Origin: Candidatus Hermodarchaeota archaeon | GTDB lineage: Archaea; Asgardarchaeota; Lokiarchaeia; Sigyniarchaeales; SOKP01 | Assembly (NCBI GenBank): GCA_048885925.1 | Contig: JBHLLG010000085.1 | Coordinates: 1 to 12,222 of the forward strand | Direction: 5' to 3' | DNA length: 12,222 nucleotides | In this document: piece by piece, positions 185 to 11,588 of the stretch | Numbering within the stretch: the first letter of the stretch is position 1 | Layout of the letters: every line of letters starts with the position of its first letter | Translations under genes and position numbers: made by a program | Notes under the pieces: generated by a model | What the model saw: only the letters and a program-made list of their open reading frames with translations | Databases searched by the model: none | Told to the model about the DNA's origin: nothing

Positions 185-280
185 TCAGAAATTTTTAAAA
201 CCTTTAAATATATCAGTTTCAATCTTTCTACAGATTCATTGAGATCCAAATAAGATAATACCTTATTTTACATCCTTAGA
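185..280 (-). pseudogene. Out-of-frame, stop-interrupted remnant of the Roadblock domain C-terminal helix belonging to the 276..818 gene
   Basis: A shifted frame starting at 280 reads SKDVK*GIILFGSQ*ICRKIETDIFKGFKNF*, with internal stops at 265-263 and 238-236. It resembles the usual Roadblock ending (..K.LG.I.LD....CEKI) that the ORF lacks. Confidence 0.65.
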
Positions 281-818
281 TATAAACAGTTAATATGATA
301 TTAGGATGTATTTGTAGAAGCCAAATATAACCATTGCTCCCTTTGATAAATAATTGTTCAAAATCCCCTTTTTTCATCTCTTTTACTGAACTTTTAGCTA
401 ATGATAGTAGTGCAGCATTCATTGCGGCTATTAGTGTCTCAACAACTCCATGAGGAAGCGCTGAAGCGATAGGTAAACCCTCCGCAGATACAATAGTAAC
501 TCCTTTCATCTCAGGGATACTTTTTAGTAATCGTTTTAGAAAATAATTGAGATTTTCAATAGTAAGTTTTTTTGAAGGATTTTTTTCGAATTTTATAACA
601 TTATCAGAGAATTTAACTGATATTCCTTTTGACATAAAATATAATTCTACGAATGGTTTTATAATTGGAAGCCCTTCATAAATCTCTAAAAGATCATGGT
701 CGAAGATTTCGAAAAGATATTTCCTCTCTATTGTTAATTTATTAACAGATTTCTTTCGCATTATAGATTCAATTTCATTGATTGCTTCTTCCAAAATACT
801 CATATCGGGAGGTTTCAT
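276..818 (-). CDS. Unknown N-terminal domain fused to a C-terminally truncated Roadblock/LC7 (MglB-like) domain; probable recent pseudogene
   Basis: IPEMKGVTIVSAEGLPIASALP..ETLIAAMNAALLSLAKSSVKEMKKGDFEQLFIKGSNGYI is a typical Roadblock/LC7 signature. The ORF stops right after the last beta-strand (IILTVYI*). Residues 9-79 are homologous to residues 137-209 of the upstream gene. Confidence 0.85.
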   Translation of the reverse strand: MKPPDMSILEEAINEIESIMRKKSVNKLTIERKYLFEIFDHDLLEIYEGLPIIKPFVELYFMSKGISVKFSDNVIKFEKNPSKKLTIENLNYFLKRLLKSIPEMKGVTIVSAEGLPIASALPHGVVETLIAAMNAALLSLAKSSVKEMKKGDFEQLFIKGSNGYIWLLQIHPNIILTVYI

Positions 819-852: not shown

Positions 853-2253
853 TCATAACTTTCCATTTTTTATCTTCTTTGATAATTCCATTTTTAATTT
901 TCTTGAATTTAATTTATCGATTAATATAGTTGCTATTTCAATATTTTTAGATTCAAGAAATTGCTGAATAAGATCTTTTAAAGTCGAATCTAAATTTACT
1001 TTTTTTACATTATAAGATTCCCACATATTTAGAATTTCGTCATAAGTACTTTTAGCATCGTGATTTTTTTTCTCTTTAATTTGTTGTTTAAAAAGAGTAA
1101 TCAGAACTTCACTAAGTTTATTAGCTAATTTTTTTAATTCATCGAAAAGAGCTTCACGTTGATATCTGTCAATAGCTAGATATAATTGGCTTTTGGCCAA
1201 TTTAAAATCATTCTTGCTAACTAAATAGTCCGCAGCAGTACAAATCTTATCTGAAATATCTTTTAATAATTCGAATACTTCTTGATGAGGTAAGCTTTCA
1301 AGGACTCTAAAAGCATCTTCAACTCTACAAGCAGAAATCCATGAATTTATTGCTGAGCGAAAAGCTTCATGAGTTAATTCTTTATCTAAAAATTCTAAAC
1401 TTGCCCAATGGGCAGCTGTTTCATAATTTCTTGCTGCTCGTTCAAATTCATTCCTATTGAAATAGAGATTACCTTCTCTTATAATAGTATCGGCGTATAA
1501 TTTTTTAAAATTCTTTGATTTTTGATCATCTACATTTTCTAATGTCTTACCTGCTTCTAAATATAAATTGATCTTAGAAAAAAGATATGCGATTTGTTCC
1601 AAATCCATTGGAGGTTCATCAACAACTTTTCTTAATTTTATACTCTTTCCAATAAAGTCAGTTTGAATACCCCTAAGCATAAAATAAAATATAACAAATG
1701 GTTTGAAGATCGGAATACCATCACTCTTAGAAAGTTCGATTAGGTCAGCATTGAATATTTCTGAAAGATATTGTCTTTCGATCGTTAATTCATTTATTGA
1801 TTCTTTCTTCATTATGGAATCGATTTTTTTTTCTGCAGATTTTAATACTTGGAGAAATTCATAACCTTCAAAATCTTCTATTTTAATTTCGGGTCTTTTT
1901 CTAACATCAACTATTTTTTTAATAGGTTTAGCTCGTCCTCCACTAATGGGCTTCTGTAATAATTCTTGAAATTCATGATGATCCCTTGAATACATATTCA
2001 AAGAATATAGCCTATAAAATAATCGTAACTGCCGCTTTAACATTCCTGCTAAAATTCCGCCATAAATTTGAACTTTAAAAGAACTGTTGGGTCCATCATA
2101 TGTCCAAATTCTTTTAGTATCATGATCTACTAGAATATACACTTTTTCAAGGTTAGTATCATTCAATATATCACCTACTATTTGCCCTTGAATAATTTCT
2201 TTTGCTACCATAAAAGGAAATTCTTGTAATTCAACTACTTCAAATATTTGCAT
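853..2253 (-). CDS. Multidomain protein: putative gelsolin-like N-terminal domain, unknown middle domain, C-terminal TPR/SNAP-like helical repeats
   Basis: 466-aa ORF. KVYILVDHDTKRIWTYDGPNSS followed by a helix resembles the gelsolin core (V.ILD....I..W.G..SS). EGNLYFNRNEFERAARNYETAA and AADYLVSKNDFKLAKSQLYLAI are TPR-like. It ends 34 bp before the Roadblock gene, so they are probably co-transcribed. The CDS is secure; the domain calls are moderate. Confidence 0.6.
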   Translation of the reverse strand: MQIFEVVELQEFPFMVAKEIIQGQIVGDILNDTNLEKVYILVDHDTKRIWTYDGPNSSFKVQIYGGILAGMLKRQLRLFYRLYSLNMYSRDHHEFQELLQKPISGGRAKPIKKIVDVRKRPEIKIEDFEGYEFLQVLKSAEKKIDSIMKKESINELTIERQYLSEIFNADLIELSKSDGIPIFKPFVIFYFMLRGIQTDFIGKSIKLRKVVDEPPMDLEQIAYLFSKINLYLEAGKTLENVDDQKSKNFKKLYADTIIREGNLYFNRNEFERAARNYETAAHWASLEFLDKELTHEAFRSAINSWISACRVEDAFRVLESLPHQEVFELLKDISDKICTAADYLVSKNDFKLAKSQLYLAIDRYQREALFDELKKLANKLSEVLITLFKQQIKEKKNHDAKSTYDEILNMWESYNVKKVNLDSTLKDLIQQFLESKNIEIATILIDKLNSRKLKMELSKKIKNGKL

Positions 2254-2589: not shown

Positions 2590-4227
2590 TTAGGTTGCTC
2601 TTCCCTTTCGTTTAATCAAGACAATAACTACAACCACAATAACCACAGCAGTCGCAGTTCCACCAATGAGCGCCACTAATAACCATGGGAATGGTGCCTC
2701 TCCATCGCTAATGATGGATTGTAATTTTACGTACATTATTTCATAATCAGTACCCCATAAACCAGGCGTATCATCATACCAGACAATATGGATTTGGTTG
2801 TTTGAATCTGTTGCAATTGCAGGCTGTCCGCTCCATCCATCATTCCAATAGGTACCATTATAACCATCAGAAACCACAATTGGGAATGACCATCCGGATG
2901 AAGCCGTCCAGTTTGAATACATTATCTCATCATCGGTACCCCATGTTCCATTGGTACTATCTTCCCAAACTACATGAATAATTCCTCGATCATCAGCCGA
3001 AATATCAACATTTTCACTTTCGCCTAAATTCCACCAGGTTCCACCGTGACCATCAGAAATAATCGTTACATTAGACCATTGACCAGTTGTTGCTGAATAT
3101 TTCGCATACATTATTTCATCATCCTCCATATTACTACGCCATGTTCCATTTGAATAATCACCCCAAACCGCGTGAGCATTTCGAAACTTATCTACTGCTA
3201 TCTTAGGATCGTCACAATCTCCAGTATTCCACCCCCATATATTGTTATAACCATCAGAAATCACTGTAGCATTCAACCATTTACCAGATGATGGGCTGTA
3301 CATGGTCCACATTATTTCTTCATCATCACCCCAAACACCATGTGTTTTATCTTCCCATATTACATGAATATTACCATTACTATCTATATCAATATCAGGA
3401 TCTGCACTCTGATCATCATTCCAACCAGTTGATGTGTCAGAAATTATAGTTATGTTAGACCATTGTCCTGATGCAACTGAATAATTAACATACATTATCT
3501 CATTATCGTCTATTCCACCAGTCCAAGGTCCCAGCGTTCGATCTTGCCAGACCACATGAACATTTCCTGAATTATCAGTAACTATTGCAGGATCTTCACT
3601 TGATTCGTTATTCCATCCCCATACATTATTCCATCCATCAGAAAGTATGGTAACATTACTCCATTGACTTGTAGTTACCGAATATTTAACATACATTATC
3701 TCAGCATCATCATAGGAATCATGCCATTTACCACTTGAATAATCGGACCAGACTACATGAATATTCCCTGAATTATCAACAGCAATACTTGGACTATAAG
3801 ACCAATCATCATTCCAACCCCACATATCATTAAAACCATCTGAAATTATTGTAATGTTTGACCACTGACTTGTAGCAATTGTATATTTAGCATAAAAAAT
3901 CTCAGAATCTATTCCACCTCCCCAATAACCAATAGTATCATCCACCCAAACAACATGAATATTCCCAGATCCATCGACAGCTATATCAGGAATTTCAGAC
4001 CAACCATCGTTCCAACCCCACACACCATTAAAACCATCAGAAAGTACTGTTATATTCTCTCCATATTGAGCATTCATTCTTAAATCGAAATCCTTATAAA
4101 CCCCGTTATTATCTTGAGAATTTAATCTATTCAATGGAATTATGGTTAAAATTAGGCTTGATACCAATAAAAAAGAAACAAAAATCAACCCTACAAAGCT
4201 TAATGCATTTCTTTTCAATAAATTCAC
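2590..4227 (-). CDS. Cell-surface, membrane-anchored Trp/Asp-rich 7-repeat beta-propeller protein (probable glycoprotein)
   Basis: GTG start. N-terminal basic + hydrophobic signal/TM segment (aa ~5-31), seven ~56-67 aa repeats, C-terminal TM (WLLVALIGG...VVIVVVVIVLI) followed by KRKGR, and 12 N-x-S/T sequons. Confidence 0.85.
   Translation of the reverse strand: MNLLKRNALSFVGLIFVSFLLVSSLILTIIPLNRLNSQDNNGVYKDFDLRMNAQYGENITVLSDGFNGVWGWNDGWSEIPDIAVDGSGNIHVVWVDDTIGYWGGGIDSEIFYAKYTIATSQWSNITIISDGFNDMWGWNDDWSYSPSIAVDNSGNIHVVWSDYSSGKWHDSYDDAEIMYVKYSVTTSQWSNVTILSDGWNNVWGWNNESSEDPAIVTDNSGNVHVVWQDRTLGPWTGGIDDNEIMYVNYSVASGQWSNITIISDTSTGWNDDQSADPDIDIDSNGNIHVIWEDKTHGVWGDDEEIMWTMYSPSSGKWLNATVISDGYNNIWGWNTGDCDDPKIAVDKFRNAHAVWGDYSNGTWRSNMEDDEIMYAKYSATTGQWSNVTIISDGHGGTWWNLGESENVDISADDRGIIHVVWEDSTNGTWGTDDEIMYSNWTASSGWSFPIVVSDGYNGTYWNDGWSGQPAIATDSNNQIHIVWYDDTPGLWGTDYEIMYVKLQSIISDGEAPFPWLLVALIGGTATAVVIVVVVIVLIKRKGRAT
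2719..4056 (-). repeat. Seven intragenic tandem repeats, period ~180-200 bp
   Basis: Consensus N(I/V)T(I/V)ISDG.N..WGWN...S..P.IA.D..GNIHVVW.D...G.W...D.EIMY..Y......WS. Visible in the DNA as recurring tacattat(c/t)tca and accatcagaaa. Confidence 0.9.
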
Positions 4228-4710: not shown

Positions 4711-5100
4711 TTAGATTTTCTTAAAATTAATTAAGAATTCGACGAAAAGGCACGCGAAAATGAGATCAACAATAACGAATAGGATTGGAAGGAAGTTGGA
4801 GTAGCCTAATACAAAATAGATTAAGTACAGAATAAAAACATAAGTTTTTAATATTGCTCCTAACACAACAATGCCATGATTCTTAGTGATATCTCTTGCC
4901 ACTAAATAATACCCTATTCCAAAAAACACTACAAAACCAAAAAATGAATGATAAAAGACTAAACTAGGCGGTACTTCCATGTCAAATATTGGCATCAAGG
5001 AATCTACAAGTGGAGATGTAAGAATGAAAATTAATCCAACAAGAATGTTCCAAATTGCGCCAATAATAAACACATACTTGTAATATTTTTTTCTTTCCAT
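4711..5100 (-). CDS. Hypothetical 4-TM integral membrane protein
   Basis: Four hydrophobic segments. The ORF track starts at GTG 5109, but that GTG lies inside an SD-like GGGTGA (5111-5106) just upstream of ATG 5100, so 5100 is preferred (129 aa). Confidence 0.75.
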   Translation of the reverse strand: MERKKYYKYVFIIGAIWNILVGLIFILTSPLVDSLMPIFDMEVPPSLVFYHSFFGFVVFFGIGYYLVARDITKNHGIVVLGAILKTYVFILYLIYFVLGYSNFLPILFVIVDLIFACLFVEFLINFKKI

Positions 5101-5363
5101 TTTATTCACCCTTTTTATAATTGAATTTTTTTAGATTTTCTTAATTTTAGATTATTGGGAATCAAAAATATGAATGTTAGAGAATTATATAAATGTTCTT
5201 AATTCTAAGATTAAAAAGTTACAAAGATCGAAAGATCTATTCGAATCCAATATAATACTTAAATAGTAAAATTGCATCATTAACTTTGTTAAAAAAATCT
5301 AACAAAAATGTATAACTCATTAAACATGAAATTCCAAGAATTGAATTTTTAATAATAAAATTT

Positions 5364-5933: not shown

Positions 5934-8900
5934 GTGAATAGAGGTTGTTTATACTTGAGAATTTTATTGTTAAGTCATCGGAATCCATATTTTCCTCCCT
6001 ATATTTTTTTAAAAACGCCTGAAGCTCTCCAAAGAGATGATATCAAACAAATTCCTTTATTAATCGATCTGTACGATAAAGGTTTTTTTAAACATACTTT
6101 TGGAACTTTTAAAACGGCTAATTTGATATTTGAAATTCAGAGTGAATATTCAAGTACACGAAAGGAGCGTCTTTTAATTTCATTAGTCGTTGATGGTAAA
6201 TCCAAAATTAATTCTACTTTAGCTGAAGAATTTTTAGAGGGATTTGTTGAGGAGTTCAAAAAAATTGAAGATAGTTTCAAGGCTTTTTATGTGGATTCTA
6301 AGGTAGATAAAGGAGATCCTACTAAATTAGAGGAAATTAGAACATTACTTAATACCTTTTATGCTTCTTTCCCGCAGGAAAAAGTCATATTTGAACAAAA
6401 AGAGGCAAGGGTATTAATTTTCGGACTTACTATGGCGGGGAAAACAACTATTATTAAAACGAGAAGAAAATCGGTATCAAAAGCAACCTTTCCAACTATA
6501 AATGTAGACATTTCAAGACTCTTAGTTAATAATGTATCTTTATTGACCTATGATATACCTGGAAAATATAAAGTTAAAGAGCTATGGAAACCTTATCTGA
6601 AAAACCAAGATGGATTGATTTTTGTTTTAGATGTTACTGACAAAGCAAGATTCTCATACGCTCGTGAATTACTACATGAAGTTGCAGGAAAACCTGAGTT
6701 AAGTGAATTGCCGCTTCTTATTCTTTTTAATAAGAGTGATTTAAAGAAACCAGATATGAATGATTTAGAAGAAGCCATGGGAGTTAAGAAACTTGGAAGG
6801 AGGCCATTGAAAACATTTTTCACAAGTGGGTCTAAAAACATAAATATCGATGAGGCATTTAATTGGCTTTCACTTAAAATTGCAGAGAGAGTCGAACGGT
6901 ATATTCCAAGAAGAGAGGTTGGAATTATCTTTTGTCGCTGGCATGAGAATTTAGGTATTAAAATCGAAGCAATATATCCTAAAGATGCATTCGAGAATCC
7001 AGAATTGATCTCTGTAAAAAGCTTTTCAACATCCCAGTTTATTTTCGGAGGAGATGAATTTAAGCCTACATCAGTTATTCTTCCATTTCCTCACTTAAAC
7101 TCAAATGCAGCAATCTATTTTGACTTTGTTCCAGATGAGAGTATTAGGGGTGGCGTTTTACCATTATCTTTAATAATTTATTACAATGAAAAAATTCCTA
7201 AAAATATAATTAACCAATTTAGCTCTTTCATACTCCAGCAATTTGACGAAATAAAAAAGCATTACTTAAGTAGAGATCAAACCATAAATATCCTTGAAAA
7301 TATTCATAGTACAATAAATAATCAAATTGATTTATATCAACCATCAATTGAAGCACTTAAAATGGCTGAATTGCGTTATGAGGCATTATTTAAGGCTGCT
7401 CGAGATGCTATTCTAATAATCGATAAAAAATCAGGAATAATAATGGATGTCAACAAAGAAGCGGAGGTTCTATTTCAACGACCATTTGAGGATTTTATTG
7501 GTATGCATTCAAGCCAAATATTAAGTGGTATAATTAATATAGATTTTAATGAAGAAGTATTAGATCAACTGAATTATCCAAATCCTTTAAGATTAGAAAT
7601 TATTGATAGTTCTGGTAACCTTATTCCTGTTGAAATTAGTGTCAATGAAGTACAGATGGGAGGTCAAATAGCTGTTCAATACATTATTCGTAACATTACT
7701 AAACGAATCGAAGCAGAAGTTAAACTAAGACATTCTGAAATAAAATATCGTCATTTATTCGAAGATTCACCCTTTTCTATACTTTTAATTGATCATAATG
7801 GAGTGTTAGTTGATTTTAATCCTGTTTTAGAAGAATCATTAGGATATACAAAAGAGGAATTAATGGGAAGGAAATTTGTAGATCTTTCAATAATCCATCA
7901 AGATTATCTATTAAGTGTTCTTGAAAGACTGAAAAGACAAGAAAGAGGTCAGATTTTTTATCCATTAGAAATTCAACTAATTCAAAAAAATGGTAGTCTC
8001 ATTTGGGTAAATATGCAGTCGTCTTTAATTGAAATTGGTGAAACCACTTTTTATCAAATTATTTGTCAGAATATAACAGAACAAAAAAAAATAGAACAAG
8101 AATTAATGAAAATTTCAAGATTAAAAGCGATTATTACAGGAATTGTATCAAGATTTGTAGGTATACAAAAATTTAATAGGGCTATAATTGATTCACTTAG
8201 AGATATTGGCGAATTTGTTCACGCAACGCGAGTATATCTTTACATTTTTAATAATAGTTTTAATTTCATAAAGTCTAGTTATTTTTGGACTCGTAAGGTA
8301 ATTTTTCCCCAAATTAATTTACCTGAAAATTTTATAATTGATAATTTTCCATGGCTAAAGGAGAAATTAAAAGAATTAGATTATTTTTATATTAAAAACG
8401 TAAATAAACTTCCTCAAGAAGCAGTAAATATAAAATATTTTCTTGAAAATCAAAAAGTGAAAAACTTTTTAGTACTTTCAATAAAAATTAACCAAACCTT
8501 AGAAGGAATAGTATGTTTTGATAATATAGACGACAAGGATTATTGGATCGAAGAAAATTTAGATTTATTAACTATTATTTCAGAAATTCTTAAAAATGTC
8601 ATACTACGTAAGTTAGCCGAAGCTACATTGCATATAAGCGAAGAAAAAATGCACGAAGAATTAGATAGAGAATATTTTTATAAGGAGCTATTCGTGAATG
8701 ATATCAATTCTATGATAAATAATATTCAATTATTCTTAGACGAATATATGAAACACGTTAATCAAATGATATTAAAGCCTAAACGAGAATTATTGGATTA
8801 TATTAAAGATCAATGTATAAACAGTCAACTTTTGATATACATAATACAAAAATTAACGATGCTTAATGAAACAAAAATTTCAATTGAACCAGTAAATCTA

Positions 8901-9326
8901 AATAATATTATTGACGATGTTAAAGAATTCATTACAAATAGTTATTCTCATAAAAAAATTATTATCGATGTTGAACATCCATCGGAAAATCTATATGTAA
9001 AAGCTGATAAGTTTCTAATTGATGTCTTTGTCAATATCCTGATTAGTTCAATTCGATATAATAGAAGTCCCGTTATTGAGATCAAAATTATTATTATCAG
9101 AAGTCAAAAGGATAACGTAAATTATATTAAAGTGAAACTTATTGATTATCAAAAAGAGATTCTAAATATTGGAAAAGAAATGATATTCCGAAAGGCAAGA
9201 GAAAAGGATAGCAAAATTAAAGAAATAATTTTAGGATTTCTTTTGGTCGAGCGAGTCTTAAACAATTACAACGGAAAAATATGGGTTGAAGGAGATTCTT
9301 TTGTTATTTTATTACCCGAAGCATAA
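5934..9326 (+). CDS. Fusion protein: longin/uDENN-like - Arf-like small GTPase - longin/uDENN-like - PAS - PAS - GAF - degenerate DHp/HATPase (pseudo histidine kinase)
   Basis: GTPase aa ~157-315: G1 GLTMAGKTT, G2 PTINV, G3 YDIPGK, Arf-like LWKPY...DGLIFVLD and PLLILFNKSD, G5 TSGSK, end EAFNWL. PAS aa ~482-592 and ~605-717, each starting YxxLF and ending NIT(K/E). GAF aa ~745-892. HK-like tail aa ~912-1130 ending GKIWVE..FVILLP. The true start is probably TTG 5955, after GAGGT at 5941-5945. No TM segment is apparent. Confidence 0.9.
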   Translation: MNRGCLYLRILLLSHRNPYFPPYIFLKTPEALQRDDIKQIPLLIDLYDKGFFKHTFGTFKTANLIFEIQSEYSSTRKERLLISLVVDGKSKINSTLAEEFLEGFVEEFKKIEDSFKAFYVDSKVDKGDPTKLEEIRTLLNTFYASFPQEKVIFEQKEARVLIFGLTMAGKTTIIKTRRKSVSKATFPTINVDISRLLVNNVSLLTYDIPGKYKVKELWKPYLKNQDGLIFVLDVTDKARFSYARELLHEVAGKPELSELPLLILFNKSDLKKPDMNDLEEAMGVKKLGRRPLKTFFTSGSKNINIDEAFNWLSLKIAERVERYIPRREVGIIFCRWHENLGIKIEAIYPKDAFENPELISVKSFSTSQFIFGGDEFKPTSVILPFPHLNSNAAIYFDFVPDESIRGGVLPLSLIIYYNEKIPKNIINQFSSFILQQFDEIKKHYLSRDQTINILENIHSTINNQIDLYQPSIEALKMAELRYEALFKAARDAILIIDKKSGIIMDVNKEAEVLFQRPFEDFIGMHSSQILSGIINIDFNEEVLDQLNYPNPLRLEIIDSSGNLIPVEISVNEVQMGGQIAVQYIIRNITKRIEAEVKLRHSEIKYRHLFEDSPFSILLIDHNGVLVDFNPVLEESLGYTKEELMGRKFVDLSIIHQDYLLSVLERLKRQERGQIFYPLEIQLIQKNGSLIWVNMQSSLIEIGETTFYQIICQNITEQKKIEQELMKISRLKAIITGIVSRFVGIQKFNRAIIDSLRDIGEFVHATRVYLYIFNNSFNFIKSSYFWTRKVIFPQINLPENFIIDNFPWLKEKLKELDYFYIKNVNKLPQEAVNIKYFLENQKVKNFLVLSIKINQTLEGIVCFDNIDDKDYWIEENLDLLTIISEILKNVILRKLAEATLHISEEKMHEELDREYFYKELFVNDINSMINNIQLFLDEYMKHVNQMILKPKRELLDYIKDQCINSQLLIYIIQKLTMLNETKISIEPVNLNNIIDDVKEFITNSYSHKKIIIDVEHPSENLYVKADKFLIDVFVNILISSIRYNRSPVIEIKIIIIRSQKDNVNYIKVKLIDYQKEILNIGKEMIFRKAREKDSKIKEIILGFLLVERVLNNYNGKIWVEGDSFVILLPEA

Positions 9327-9549: not shown

Positions 9550-10377
9550 ATGCTTATTATAGAAGATAAAATAATTTTGATCACAGGCTCTACAGATGGT
9601 ATAGGATACCAAGCAGCAGTTGAACTTGTAAAATCTGGGCATTATATAATTTTACATGGAAGAAATCGGGAAAAAACTGAATTGACGATGAAACGTATTG
9701 AAATGGATACAAATAAGAAAAATTTAAGTATAGTATATGCTGATCTTAGATCTTTCTCTCAAATAAAAGAAATGGTAAATGAGATTTACGAACATTTTGA
9801 TAAATTGGACATTTTGATAAATAATGCTGGTATATATAAATCTGAACGCAGTATAACTCAAGAGGGATTAGAGGAAACTTTTGCGATAAATTATGTAGCG
9901 CCATTTCTTCTATCAAATCTTTTAATAGATTTGTTGAAAAAGAGGAAACCAAGTAGAATAGTCAATGTGGCTTCCCAAGTTCATTCTAATCATTTCAATT
10001 TTGAAAATTTACAATTTAAACAGGGATATACCGGTACTAAAGCTTATGCTCAATCAAAGACAGCTCTTATTTTATTTACATATCTACTTGCTGAAAAATT
10101 GAAAAATACTGGAATAACTGTAAATTGTCTTCATCCGGGGGTTATTAATACAAAATTATTAAAGACAGCTATGAGTTTTGGTGGAGCCTCACCAAAAAAA
10201 GGTGCAAAAACCTTAATTTATGCTGCAACAGCACCAGAATTAGAGAATGTAAGTGGAAAATATTTTGTAAATAATCGTTCAGAGCCCTCAAAAGATATTA
10301 CCTATAATAAGGGAATCCAGAAAAAACTCTGGAGAAAAACAGAAGAAATAATAGAGATGGATTTTAAATTCTACTGA
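9550..10377 (+). CDS. Classical short-chain dehydrogenase/reductase, retinol-DH/WWOX/protochlorophyllide-reductase-like subgroup
   Basis: TGSTDGIG, LINNAG, ETFAINY..PFLL, RIVNVAS, catalytic YAQSK, LHPGVINT, SGKYF. Confidence 0.95.
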   Translation: MLIIEDKIILITGSTDGIGYQAAVELVKSGHYIILHGRNREKTELTMKRIEMDTNKKNLSIVYADLRSFSQIKEMVNEIYEHFDKLDILINNAGIYKSERSITQEGLEETFAINYVAPFLLSNLLIDLLKKRKPSRIVNVASQVHSNHFNFENLQFKQGYTGTKAYAQSKTALILFTYLLAEKLKNTGITVNCLHPGVINTKLLKTAMSFGGASPKKGAKTLIYAATAPELENVSGKYFVNNRSEPSKDITYNKGIQKKLWRKTEEIIEMDFKFY

Positions 10378-11588
10378 ATATTATTGACTATAACTGTTCC
10401 AATTCGTCCCTTCAAATCTTCTGGTGTAAATGGTCCTGATTCCATAATTAATTCTCTAGCTTCATCAGCTTTTTCCCAAACGTTCCATAAGAGAACTCCT
10501 TGGACTTTTCCCTCCTTTAAGTAATATATTACACCCTCTTCTAAAGGTTCTTTCCAATCTTCTACTATATCTAATTTTGAGTTTAAAATTCCTACAGCTT
10601 CATATCCAAGGTCAAATAAGTCAGAGTAAAATAAGGATAAATGATCAAAAACATTTTCTTTGCCCGTCATATTTTGACCTGCCAATTCTCCCATCATAAG
10701 GGCGTTATCTTCATGTTCTATGCGAATGTGCTGATCGAGAGCAGAATTGTAATAAATGGCAACATCTCCAGCAGCATAGATATCAGGGTCATTTGTCTGA
10801 AGGTATTGATTTACCACAATTCCATCTTTTACTTCTAAACTTGCTTCTTCTGCGAGCTTTATATTAGGTTTAATTCCTAATCCAGCGATAATAGTATCAA
10901 ATTTCAATTTTTTTCCACTATTAGTTTCAACCAAAAATGTTTTATCCCTTTTTGTAATTTTTGTTACCAGCTCTTCTTTCATTACTTTGATATTATTTTT
11001 CCGATAATATTCATTTAAGTGATTACTTAATGTTTTCGGAAAAATCAGTGCACAAATTCCGGTTTCAGGAAAAATCATTGTAACCTCTGCATCAGGTTTG
11101 TACATTTTTATTGCCGCTGCTATTTCTGATCCGATAAAACCACCACCAATAACTCCGAATGTTTTATTTTGATCAACAAGCTTTTTCAAATTCTGATAGT
11201 CTGACAGCGTACGGTAATATATTATTCCTTTCTCTTCAACTTTAGGTAGTGTTCTAGGAATGCCACCTGTAGCAAGCAAGAGCTTTGAATAACTGTATTT
11301 ATTCCCTTTTTCATCTATAACTTTTTTATTAGGGCGATCAATTTTAGTCACTGTATGTCCAAGATGCATTGTAATATTAGCTTCATTAGTTCCTAAATCA
11401 ATATCTTCAAGTTCTTCATCACCCGTCCAAAGAGCCTTAGAAAGCGGAGGACGTGCATAAGGAGGATCCGCCTCACTACTAACTAAACCAATAGTTCCTT
11501 TGGGGTCACTCTGCCGGATGCTATGAACTGCTGCATCTGCAGTCATTCCTCCTCCAATAATTAGATATTTATAATTATAACTAGTCAT
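10371..11588 (-). CDS. FAD-dependent NAD(P)H oxidoreductase, AIF / ferredoxin-reductase / MDAR family
   Basis: YLIIGGG (FAD), PY.RPPLSK, LLLATGG, VIGGGFIGSE (NAD), TNDPDIYAAGD, RIEH, FYSDL; SD-like AGGAG upstream. Confidence 0.93.
   Translation of the reverse strand: MTSYNYKYLIIGGGMTADAAVHSIRQSDPKGTIGLVSSEADPPYARPPLSKALWTGDEELEDIDLGTNEANITMHLGHTVTKIDRPNKKVIDEKGNKYSYSKLLLATGGIPRTLPKVEEKGIIYYRTLSDYQNLKKLVDQNKTFGVIGGGFIGSEIAAAIKMYKPDAEVTMIFPETGICALIFPKTLSNHLNEYYRKNNIKVMKEELVTKITKRDKTFLVETNSGKKLKFDTIIAGLGIKPNIKLAEEASLEVKDGIVVNQYLQTNDPDIYAAGDVAIYYNSALDQHIRIEHEDNALMMGELAGQNMTGKENVFDHLSLFYSDLFDLGYEAVGILNSKLDIVEDWKEPLEEGVIYYLKEGKVQGVLLWNVWEKADEARELIMESGPFTPEDLKGRIGTVIVNNIQ

Follow-up and report, generated by a model that had tools for sequence, protein, structure and literature searches.

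How an Arf-like small GTPase came to share one polypeptide with the sensor and kinase domains of a two-component system, and what such a chain might do, are questions raised by the open reading frame (ORF) 5934-9326 (+) of a contig from Candidatus Hermodarchaeota archaeon (GenBank assembly GCA_048885925.1). The window, i.e., the whole stretch of 12,222 nucleotides that was analyzed, is the entire 12.2-kb contig (C85) of a 3.9-Mb assembly comprising 181 contigs with an estimated completeness of 95%, and its guanine-plus-cytosine (G+C) content ranges from 24 to 37%. Eight parts are encoded in the ORF: a longin-like domain, an Arf-like GTPase domain, a second α/β domain, a helical linker, two PAS domains, a GAF domain, and a DHp-CA fold. 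The fusion is genuine as far as sequence data can establish this, the gene is a member of a Promethearchaeota (Loki-type Asgard) family, and its product is, on balance, predicted to be a soluble, cytosolic, nucleotide-binding pseudo-kinase scaffold, itself probably dimeric, that would signal via protein contacts.

An initial annotation had described an uninterrupted ORF of 1130 amino acids, and a single open frame of this length is indeed obtained by mechanical translation. No ATG precedes residue 167 in this frame. The start is placed at TTG 5955 because the N-termini of orthologs align with the residue encoded there (MRILxLSH) and because residues 8-27 form the first and second strands of the N-terminal domain in the AlphaFold2 model; TTG 5955 is thus the likely start codon, with a product of 1123 amino acids. 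A TTTATTAATA stretch is located approximately 25-35 nucleotides upstream of TTG 5955 and could represent an archaeal TATA box. Two separate AlphaFold2 models were used, one for each half of the protein and each built on an alignment of family members. No membrane segment is found in the protein, in agreement with the initial annotation, the maximum 19-residue Kyte-Doolittle mean being 1.35. In public records, members of the family are named 'PAS domain S-box protein', 'ADP-ribosylation factor-like protein', or similar.

The authenticity of the junction between the two halves, which the initial annotation had located at approximately 7300-7400, must be considered first, since the short 12.2-kb contig in a 181-contig assembly and the degeneration of both enzymatic centers could also be explained by a chimeric assembly of a GTPase gene with a sensor-kinase gene or by a decaying pseudogene. 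Among the listed database relatives, 74 of 120 are colinear and full length (1075-1135 amino acids, with a P-loop), share 40-91% identity with the protein, and are encoded on contigs of up to 1.8 Mb; furthermore, 22 orthologous loci were obtained from metagenome-assembled genomes of Promethearchaeota, one of them in a 2.27-Mb record titled 'chromosome'. Near-identical metagenome contigs from four studies cover the gene with no joints reported, and their pieces cross the junction at 7189-7360 (run X2), 7200-7369 (run X5), and 7000-7339 (run X3); run X5 has no cover in 2 of 30 bins, which does not constitute a finding. The frame is unbroken, and close orthologs are 66-84% identical in each of the domains. 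Artefact, chimera, and pseudogene were rejected in view of the colinear relatives, the bridging contigs, the open frame, and the conservation of every domain, and an origin of this kind is considered extremely improbable. The junction can therefore be regarded as real on the evidence of both orthologs and spanning contigs. Separately, 29 other letters replace positions 8090-8363 (the linker between PAS2 and GAF and the start of GAF) in the contig from run X2, at a depth of 21; this variant may come from a strain or a related organism in which the segment is shorter or divergent.

The GTPase domain (6387-6881) is matched by the Pfam family Arf (PF00025) at residues 152-314 with an E-value of 1.1e-35 and 123 bits, above the curated cut-off, and the G-domain fold is Arf-like; the source genome contains 84 matches to the Arf model. 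All of the motifs of a GTPase are found: G1 GLTMAGKT in the P-loop (6423-6446), the switch-I threonine T188 (6495-6497), G3 DIPG (DIPGK at 6552-6566), G4 NKSD (6729-6740), and G5 TSGSK (6822-6836). Among 29 aligned family members, G164, G169, K170, T172, T188, D207, G210, N266, and K267 are invariant. The switch-II glutamine of Arf1, which is mutated in Q71L, is catalytic, and the residue following DxPG here, Lys211 (6564-6566), aligns with this glutamine of the Arf1 DVGGQ motif. The domain can thus be called full, as the initial annotation had it, with respect to its nucleotide motifs but not with respect to the catalytic glutamine, which is replaced. In 74 full-length relatives, the switch-II site is occupied by Lys in 45, Gln in 24, Tyr in 3, and His in 2. 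Arf proteins typically start with an amphipathic, usually myristoylated helix for membrane binding. No N-terminal amphipathic helix of the Arf type is present in this protein: the G domain starts at approximately residue 152, behind a 145-residue α/β domain, and the N-terminus of the protein, MRILLLSH, is devoid of Gly2. Gtr1_RagA (PF04670) is not among the 13 Pfam families matched by the protein at E ≤ 1; precomputed PF04670 matches exist for some relatives that are longer or stand alone. The Rag-like structure 8yl2 from Asgards (LokiRagO) could be aligned through 237 residues over 150-437, i.e., the GTPase and the next domain, with a root-mean-square deviation of 14.2.

Two α/β domains bracket the GTPase in the AlphaFold2 model, as had been proposed in the initial annotation. 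The N-terminal domain (5955-6368; residues 2-137 in the numbering of the model and 9-144 in that of the ORF) has the longin-like element order bbabbbaa, where b denotes a strand and a denotes a helix, with strands (E) and helices (H) at E2-9, E16-21, H28-39, E43-48, E52-62, E70-80, H87-102, and H122-137 of the model. The second α/β domain (6918-7262; residues 329-443) has the order bbabbba, directly follows the GTPase, and stands in the place of the C-terminal roadblock domain of Rag proteins. No Pfam family is matched at E ≤ 10 by residues 8-150 or 321-460, and the longin, roadblock, and NPR2 families are absent from the best 25 of the 28 families in a scan of 43 family members. Profile searches of solved structures with the flanking domains gave only chance-level matches (best E 0.7 and 1.2, the former for the N-terminal domain), and the N-terminal domain is connected to NPRL2 by neither Pfam nor these profile searches. 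A common origin of the two flanking domains is not supported, because the probability in their profile-profile comparison is only 2.6%. An Atlas cluster close to the N-terminal domain (score 0.85) contains NPR2 in 19% of its members, which is a lead only, and GTPases fill the lists returned by VIA and Foldseek for the N-terminal model, so that the flanking domains are barely probed by these comparisons. Homodimer prediction for the N-terminal 473 residues yielded a score of 0.00 and a mark of 0.42, which speaks neither for nor against dimerization.

The sensor half is entered through a long, signaling-helix-like linker (7272-7370; helices 440-460 and 462-472 of the N-terminal model) that runs into PAS1. 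The two PAS stretches, at approximately residues 481-595 and 604-716, are matched by PAS_9 with 78.4 bits (cut-off 27), PAS with 62.7 bits, and PAS_8 with 43.6 bits; PAS1 (7374-7718) is covered by PAS_8 and PAS_9, and PAS2 (7743-8087) by PAS_9 at residues 614-716 and PAS at residues 604-699. The GAF domain (8172-8522) is a weak match, with an E-value of 0.035 in the whole protein and of 0.001 in the isolated stretch, where its 20.1 bits remain below the 22.4-bit cut-off. The last GAF helix continues into a DHp-like helical hairpin (8550-8870; helices 156-225 and 233-262 of the C-terminal model), which is followed by a degenerate, HATPase_c-like CA domain (8886-9323). HATPase_c receives 20.2-24.2 bits against a 26.4-bit cut-off, and in a scan of the source genome the approximately 24 bits of this protein are the weakest of 22 HATPase_c matches and the only ones below the cut-off. 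The C-terminal model nevertheless displays the DHp hairpin and the α/β sandwich fold of the CA domain. The two PAS domains, the GAF domain, and the kinase-like tail named in the initial annotation are therefore borne out, the PAS domains above the Pfam cut-offs, the kinase-like tail by a weak match together with the modeled fold, and the GAF domain more tentatively by a weak match.

The same tail had been described as lacking catalytic residues, and this is what is observed. In the H-box FYKELFVNDIN (8676-8708), Asn922 (8697-8699) occupies the position of the phospho-acceptor histidine, where P0082-86, P0092, P0095, P0097, P0100, and P0109 have His. ATP-binding sites of histidine kinases are defined by the N-box asparagine, the G1 motif DxGxG, and the glycine-rich G2 lid. 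The corresponding stretches of this protein, the N box NILISSIRYN (9033-9062; N..SS), G1 DYQKEI (9144-9161), and the G2 region EIILGFLLVE (9222-9251), have lost these motifs when compared with N..NA, DNGIGI, and GMGLGLSLVK in the relatives P0100, P0109, P0171, and P0173, from which the canonical forms were taken. In the 74 full-length relatives, the H-box site holds Asn in 60, His in 6, Ser in 3, Lys in 2, and Thr, Phe, and Gln in 1 each. Despite the loss of the histidine, F915, Y916, E918, L919, F920, and D923 of the DHp stretch are invariant in the 29 aligned members. None of the 7 other ORFs of the window encodes a receiver domain (Response_reg), which agrees with the statement in the initial annotation that no response regulator is found there, and 19 receiver domains are encoded elsewhere in the source genome. 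Three paralogous kinases of the same genome (C2:57288-58616, C35:17220-21074, and C35:21253-23241) carry the DHp motif FY[KR]DLFxHDINNIL, in which the histidine is retained.

These observations also bear on whether the protein could be an unusual but working kinase or a member of a phosphorelay, in which His907 or the histidine of a heterodimeric partner would be phosphorylated, with the divergent CA domain binding ATP or with a paralogous kinase providing it in trans. His907 (8652-8654) is nearly invariant in the alignments, being present in at least 90% of both 29 and 40 aligned sequences, and precedes the canonical site by 15 residues; the adenine-contacting aspartate of the G1 box, D1071, and G1114 are invariant in the 29 aligned members; the DHp motif shared with the three paralogs would allow mixed dimers; and the canonical histidine is kept in 6 of the 74 full-length relatives. 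By contrast, the N-box asparagine is replaced by serine and the G1 and G2 glycines are gone in all 21 sampled members of the 1100-residue group, the HATPase_c match is the sub-threshold and weakest one mentioned above, and the presence of seven residue types at the canonical histidine site implies a relaxed need for phosphorylation. A working kinase of this kind is accordingly considered improbable.

The family to which the gene belongs places the domains in a wider context. The N-terminal domain occurs alone (about 188 amino acids), with the GTPase (about 320), with the GTPase and the mid-domain (about 500-630), with PAS added (about 700), with PAS and HATPase_c (800-970), with two PAS domains, GAF, and a degenerate kinase as in the protein of the window (1100-1126), and with many PAS domains (1661-1897); in P0158, P0165, P0166, P0171, P0173, and P0177 it precedes PAS or a PAS-kinase without any GTPase. 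Full sets of canonical kinase motifs are retained in shorter members, and the GTPase-fused P0100, P0108, and P0109 combine the histidine, N..NA, and DNGIGI (DxGxG), a combination found in none of the 21 sampled members of the 1100-residue group. The largest forms, P0106, P0107, and P0170 (1661-1897 amino acids), contain the same N-terminal domain and GTPase with a precomputed Gtr1_RagA match and many PAS domains and constitute a separate, well-supported branch. In the source genome itself, a paralog at G000:C5:89609-90412 (+), in a 425-residue frame, has the N-terminal domain (39% identity) joined directly to a coiled coil and PAS without a GTPase; two more loci encode paralogs of this domain, C9:64840-65238 and C6:1650-2399, the latter together with a GTPase.

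In a quick maximum-likelihood phylogeny built from 46 rows of the N-terminal module, with the root assumed on three stand-alone forms, the protein falls into a Lys clade (6 rows) supported by a Shimodaira-Hasegawa-like approximate likelihood ratio test (SH-aLRT) value of 99, which is nested in an Asn clade (11 rows, support 100). Under this root, the His-bearing forms with full kinase motifs branch outside the Asn clade. The tree suggests, depending on the root, that the ATP-site motifs were lost first, then the histidine, and then the catalytic glutamine. With the present query at E ≤ 1e-50, a match is found in 54 of 120 sampled genomes of the class, in 50 of 101 of the taxonomic family, and in 22 of 35 of the genus; the submitters' labels on some matches name other Asgard phyla, and these labels are not confirmed.

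On this basis, the pseudo-kinase scaffold introduced above may be envisaged as follows. Guanine nucleotide would be bound and hydrolyzed slowly or only with outside help in trans, and the protein would not autophosphorylate. The conformation of a helical spine that links the N-terminal module with the PAS/GAF sensors and the DHp hairpin would depend jointly on PAS/GAF ligands and on the nucleotide state of that module. The conserved DHp surface would bind partners, for instance a receiver protein or the three kinases encoded in the same genome with the same DHp motif, and action would be exerted through contacts of the DHp-CA end, of the GTPase surface, or of both. A role of the dead kinase as a dimer scaffold, in particular, is plausible. 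Within this scheme, the GTPase module would serve, by a slight preponderance of the comparative evidence, as a regulatory input or co-switch rather than as the sole output; such a role is favored because relatives with competent kinase motifs place the module in the sensor position and because the N-terminal domain also fronts PAS-kinase proteins without a GTPase.

The opposite direction of signal flow had been put forward in the initial annotation: PAS/GAF ligands, acting via the helical spine, would set the nucleotide state or the effector surface of the N-terminal GTPase as the output, and the dead kinase would only hold the dimer together. In such a model, the longin- and roadblock-like domains on either side of the GTPase would be built-in platforms for nucleotide exchange or GTPase activation. 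Longin and roadblock domains are established regulators of small GTPases. MglB, FLCN, and GATOR1 are mentioned in this connection in the literature. Conservation is highest in the N-terminal module, second in PAS1, and lowest in GAF, DHp, and CA, so that distant orthologs share 53, 60, and 55% identity in the three domains of the module as opposed to 35-38% in GAF, DHp, and CA; moreover, the module exists as a stand-alone protein and can thus act by itself. Precedent for reversed flow is reported for DivL (PMC4211667; 10.1101/812529). Yet the family members with complete kinase motifs carry this module where a sensor usually stands, the N-terminal domain stands before the GTPase-less PAS or kinase proteins P0165, P0171, and P0173, as would fit an input or adaptor role, the replacement of the catalytic glutamine of Arf by lysine in the clade renders a self-contained GTPase cycle doubtful, and the G domain is internal and lacks the N-terminal amphipathic helix for membrane output of the Arf type. 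Reversed flow, which finds no direct support here, is therefore regarded as a minority possibility.

Several points weigh against the scaffold with an input GTPase and are best considered together. The lost motifs predict lost activity, which falls short of proof; the CA domain might still bind nucleotide, given the invariant D1071 and G1114, and His907 could be an unconventional phospho-acceptor. The best-conserved part is the N-terminal module, which is also compatible with the module being the business end, and the putative assignment of its flanking domains as longin-like and Rag-CRD/roadblock-like (CRD, C-terminal roadblock domain) derives from their element order in one model. The root of the tree is an assumption, with the stand-alone forms as the outgroup, and the PAS-only rows P0167 and P0174 were left out by the P-loop motif filter. 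The gene is, judging from its distribution, accessory, dispensable, and mostly single copy; it is called dispensable because this query fails to find it in 13 of the 35 genomes of the genus, among them several with a completeness of 99-100%. Finally, no conserved neighbor or operon partner is found, any neighboring gene being shared by at most 6 of the 22 orthologous loci.

The other genes of the window illustrate this variability: among the 22 orthologous loci, the Roadblock gene recurs on 2, the SBBP-like gene on 1, and the short-chain dehydrogenase gene on 2. The Roadblock gene, 276-818 (-), is located 5 kb from the GTPase-kinase gene and encodes 180 amino acids with Roadblock/LC7 at residues 93-179 (Pfam E 2.8e-16) behind an N-terminal extension of approximately 90 residues without assignment; its homologs are found on loci L015 and L031. 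The 545-residue ORF 2590-4227 (-) has weak matches to the SBBP β-propeller repeat and to cohesin-like families; its region has a G+C content of approximately 37%, against approximately 27% around it, and a strong negative GC skew, and a 72%-identical homolog is located near the ortholog on L015. ORFs 853-2253 (-) (466 amino acids) and 4711-5109 (-) (132 amino acids) match no Pfam family above noise, with only weak TPR_21, and have homologs on none of the 22 orthologous loci. Downstream, a short-chain dehydrogenase gene, 9550-10377 (+), converges with an oxidoreductase gene, 10371-11588 (-), their 3′ ends sharing 7 nucleotides; the oxidoreductase comprises Pyr_redox_2 with an end resembling AIF_C, the apoptosis-inducing-factor C-terminal family. 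Within the GTPase-coding part, an 82-residue antisense ORF, 6593-6841 (-), is found again in 5 orthologous loci and is most simply a by-product of the conservation of the sense strand.

Asgards carry dozens of small GTPases, and almost nothing is known of their control or targets. The present family ties a small GTPase physically to prokaryotic sensor domains and thereby offers a single-chain handle on how the two logics were coupled before eukaryotes; moreover, its members grade naturally from kinases that look competent to forms degenerate at both centers, which makes comparative biochemistry straightforward. More tentatively, the chain might be a bridge between small-GTPase and two-component signaling, in which nucleotide and PAS/GAF ligands are integrated on a dimeric spine and either the DHp-CA end captures or silences paralogous kinases or a receiver, or the sensor half sets the effector surface of the GTPase. 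The family would then record the stepwise conversion of a kinase into a eukaryote-style GTPase switch, with the ATP-site motifs, the histidine, and the catalytic glutamine lost in this order.

With regard to novelty, the anatomy given in the initial annotation and the reality of the junction stand, whereas the designation as a new signaling system does not, since related fusions are in print (Tran et al., 2024, PMC10933270; Liu et al., bioRxiv 10.1101/2020.10.19.343400) and the bacterial conservon connects a histidine kinase, a roadblock protein, and a small GTPase that are separate proteins (PMC4316618). The further statement that no description of the architecture was known holds for the exact chain in searchable text but not for the general fusion types. 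In the searchable main texts, as distinct from figures (Liu et al., Figure 5c) and supplements (PMC11914678, Dataset D8; figures of PMC10933270), no report was found that joins Arf or another small GTPase with PAS or a histidine kinase in Asgards, beyond a general sentence of Liu et al., and none that mentions the chain of GTPase, PAS, GAF, and dead kinase; the survey of Asgard sensor kinases PMC10343646 contains no occurrence of GTPase, Arf, longin, or roadblock. The surprise is lower than first claimed, given that longin/two-component fusions, longin-GTPase-roadblock proteins, and bacterial partnerships of kinase, roadblock protein, and GTPase have already been published.

Five groups of known systems can be compared with the protein. 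A longin and a roadblock domain were reported to flank the GTPase in fusion proteins of Asgards (Tran et al., 2024), and Asgard Arfs were reported with extra N-terminal domains such as longin (PMC11914678). The likeness to the longin-GTPase-roadblock proteins consists in a GTPase between two small α/β domains, the Pfam Arf assignment, the same phylum, the alignment of LokiRagO 8yl2 over the GTPase and the next domain, and the stand-alone versions of the module in related genomes; the difference is that the module of the window is followed by approximately 650 residues of PAS-PAS-GAF-DHp-CA and has no Gtr1_RagA match, and the words 'PAS' and 'kinase' are absent in the longin-GTPase-roadblock context from the main texts searched. 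Liu et al. (10.1101/2020.10.19.343400, Figure 5c) mention "many fusions" of an NPRL2-like longin with two-component domains in Asgards and suggest that Asgard growth control has stayed centered on two-component systems with 'eukaryotic' regulators; here, the likeness is a longin-like N-terminal domain before PAS and kinase domains and the occurrence of the same N-terminal domain with PAS or PAS-kinase, both with and without the GTPase.

Kinship with histidine pseudo-kinases whose signaling proceeds through contacts, namely DivL, RetS, and the kinase-related domain of plant phytochromes, is confined to the fold, at 9-20% identity, and none of these carries a small GTPase, unlike the protein of the window. 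DivL has a tyrosine in place of the histidine, and RetS pairs with GacS. In the actinobacterial conservon, as described by Wuichet and Sogaard-Andersen (PMC4316618), the histidine kinase CvnA, the roadblock/MglB-like CvnB, CvnC, and the small GTPase CvnD are separate proteins; the likeness of the conservon and of the Group 1 Rup neighborhoods is that a histidine kinase is functionally linked with a roadblock-type domain and a Ras-superfamily GTPase. The same authors describe GTPases without the glutamine, in which a partner domain is suspected of supplying it. The conservon is bacterial and membrane-bound, with operon proteins, an MglA-type GTPase, and active kinases, whereas the window encodes one predicted soluble chain with an Arf-like GTPase and a presumably dead kinase. 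Canonical PAS/GAF kinases, such as bacteriophytochromes and HK853, share the order PAS-PAS-GAF-DHp-CA and the continuous GAF-DHp helix (Foldseek E-values of 8e-12 to 1e-10); the protein of the window differs from them in lacking the histidine, N box, G1, and G2 and an adjacent receiver gene, and in having an N-terminal GTPase module in place of a sensor or membrane domain. As judged from its sequence, the protein is a variant, awaiting experiment, of fusion types already reported in Asgards rather than a categorically new signaling system.

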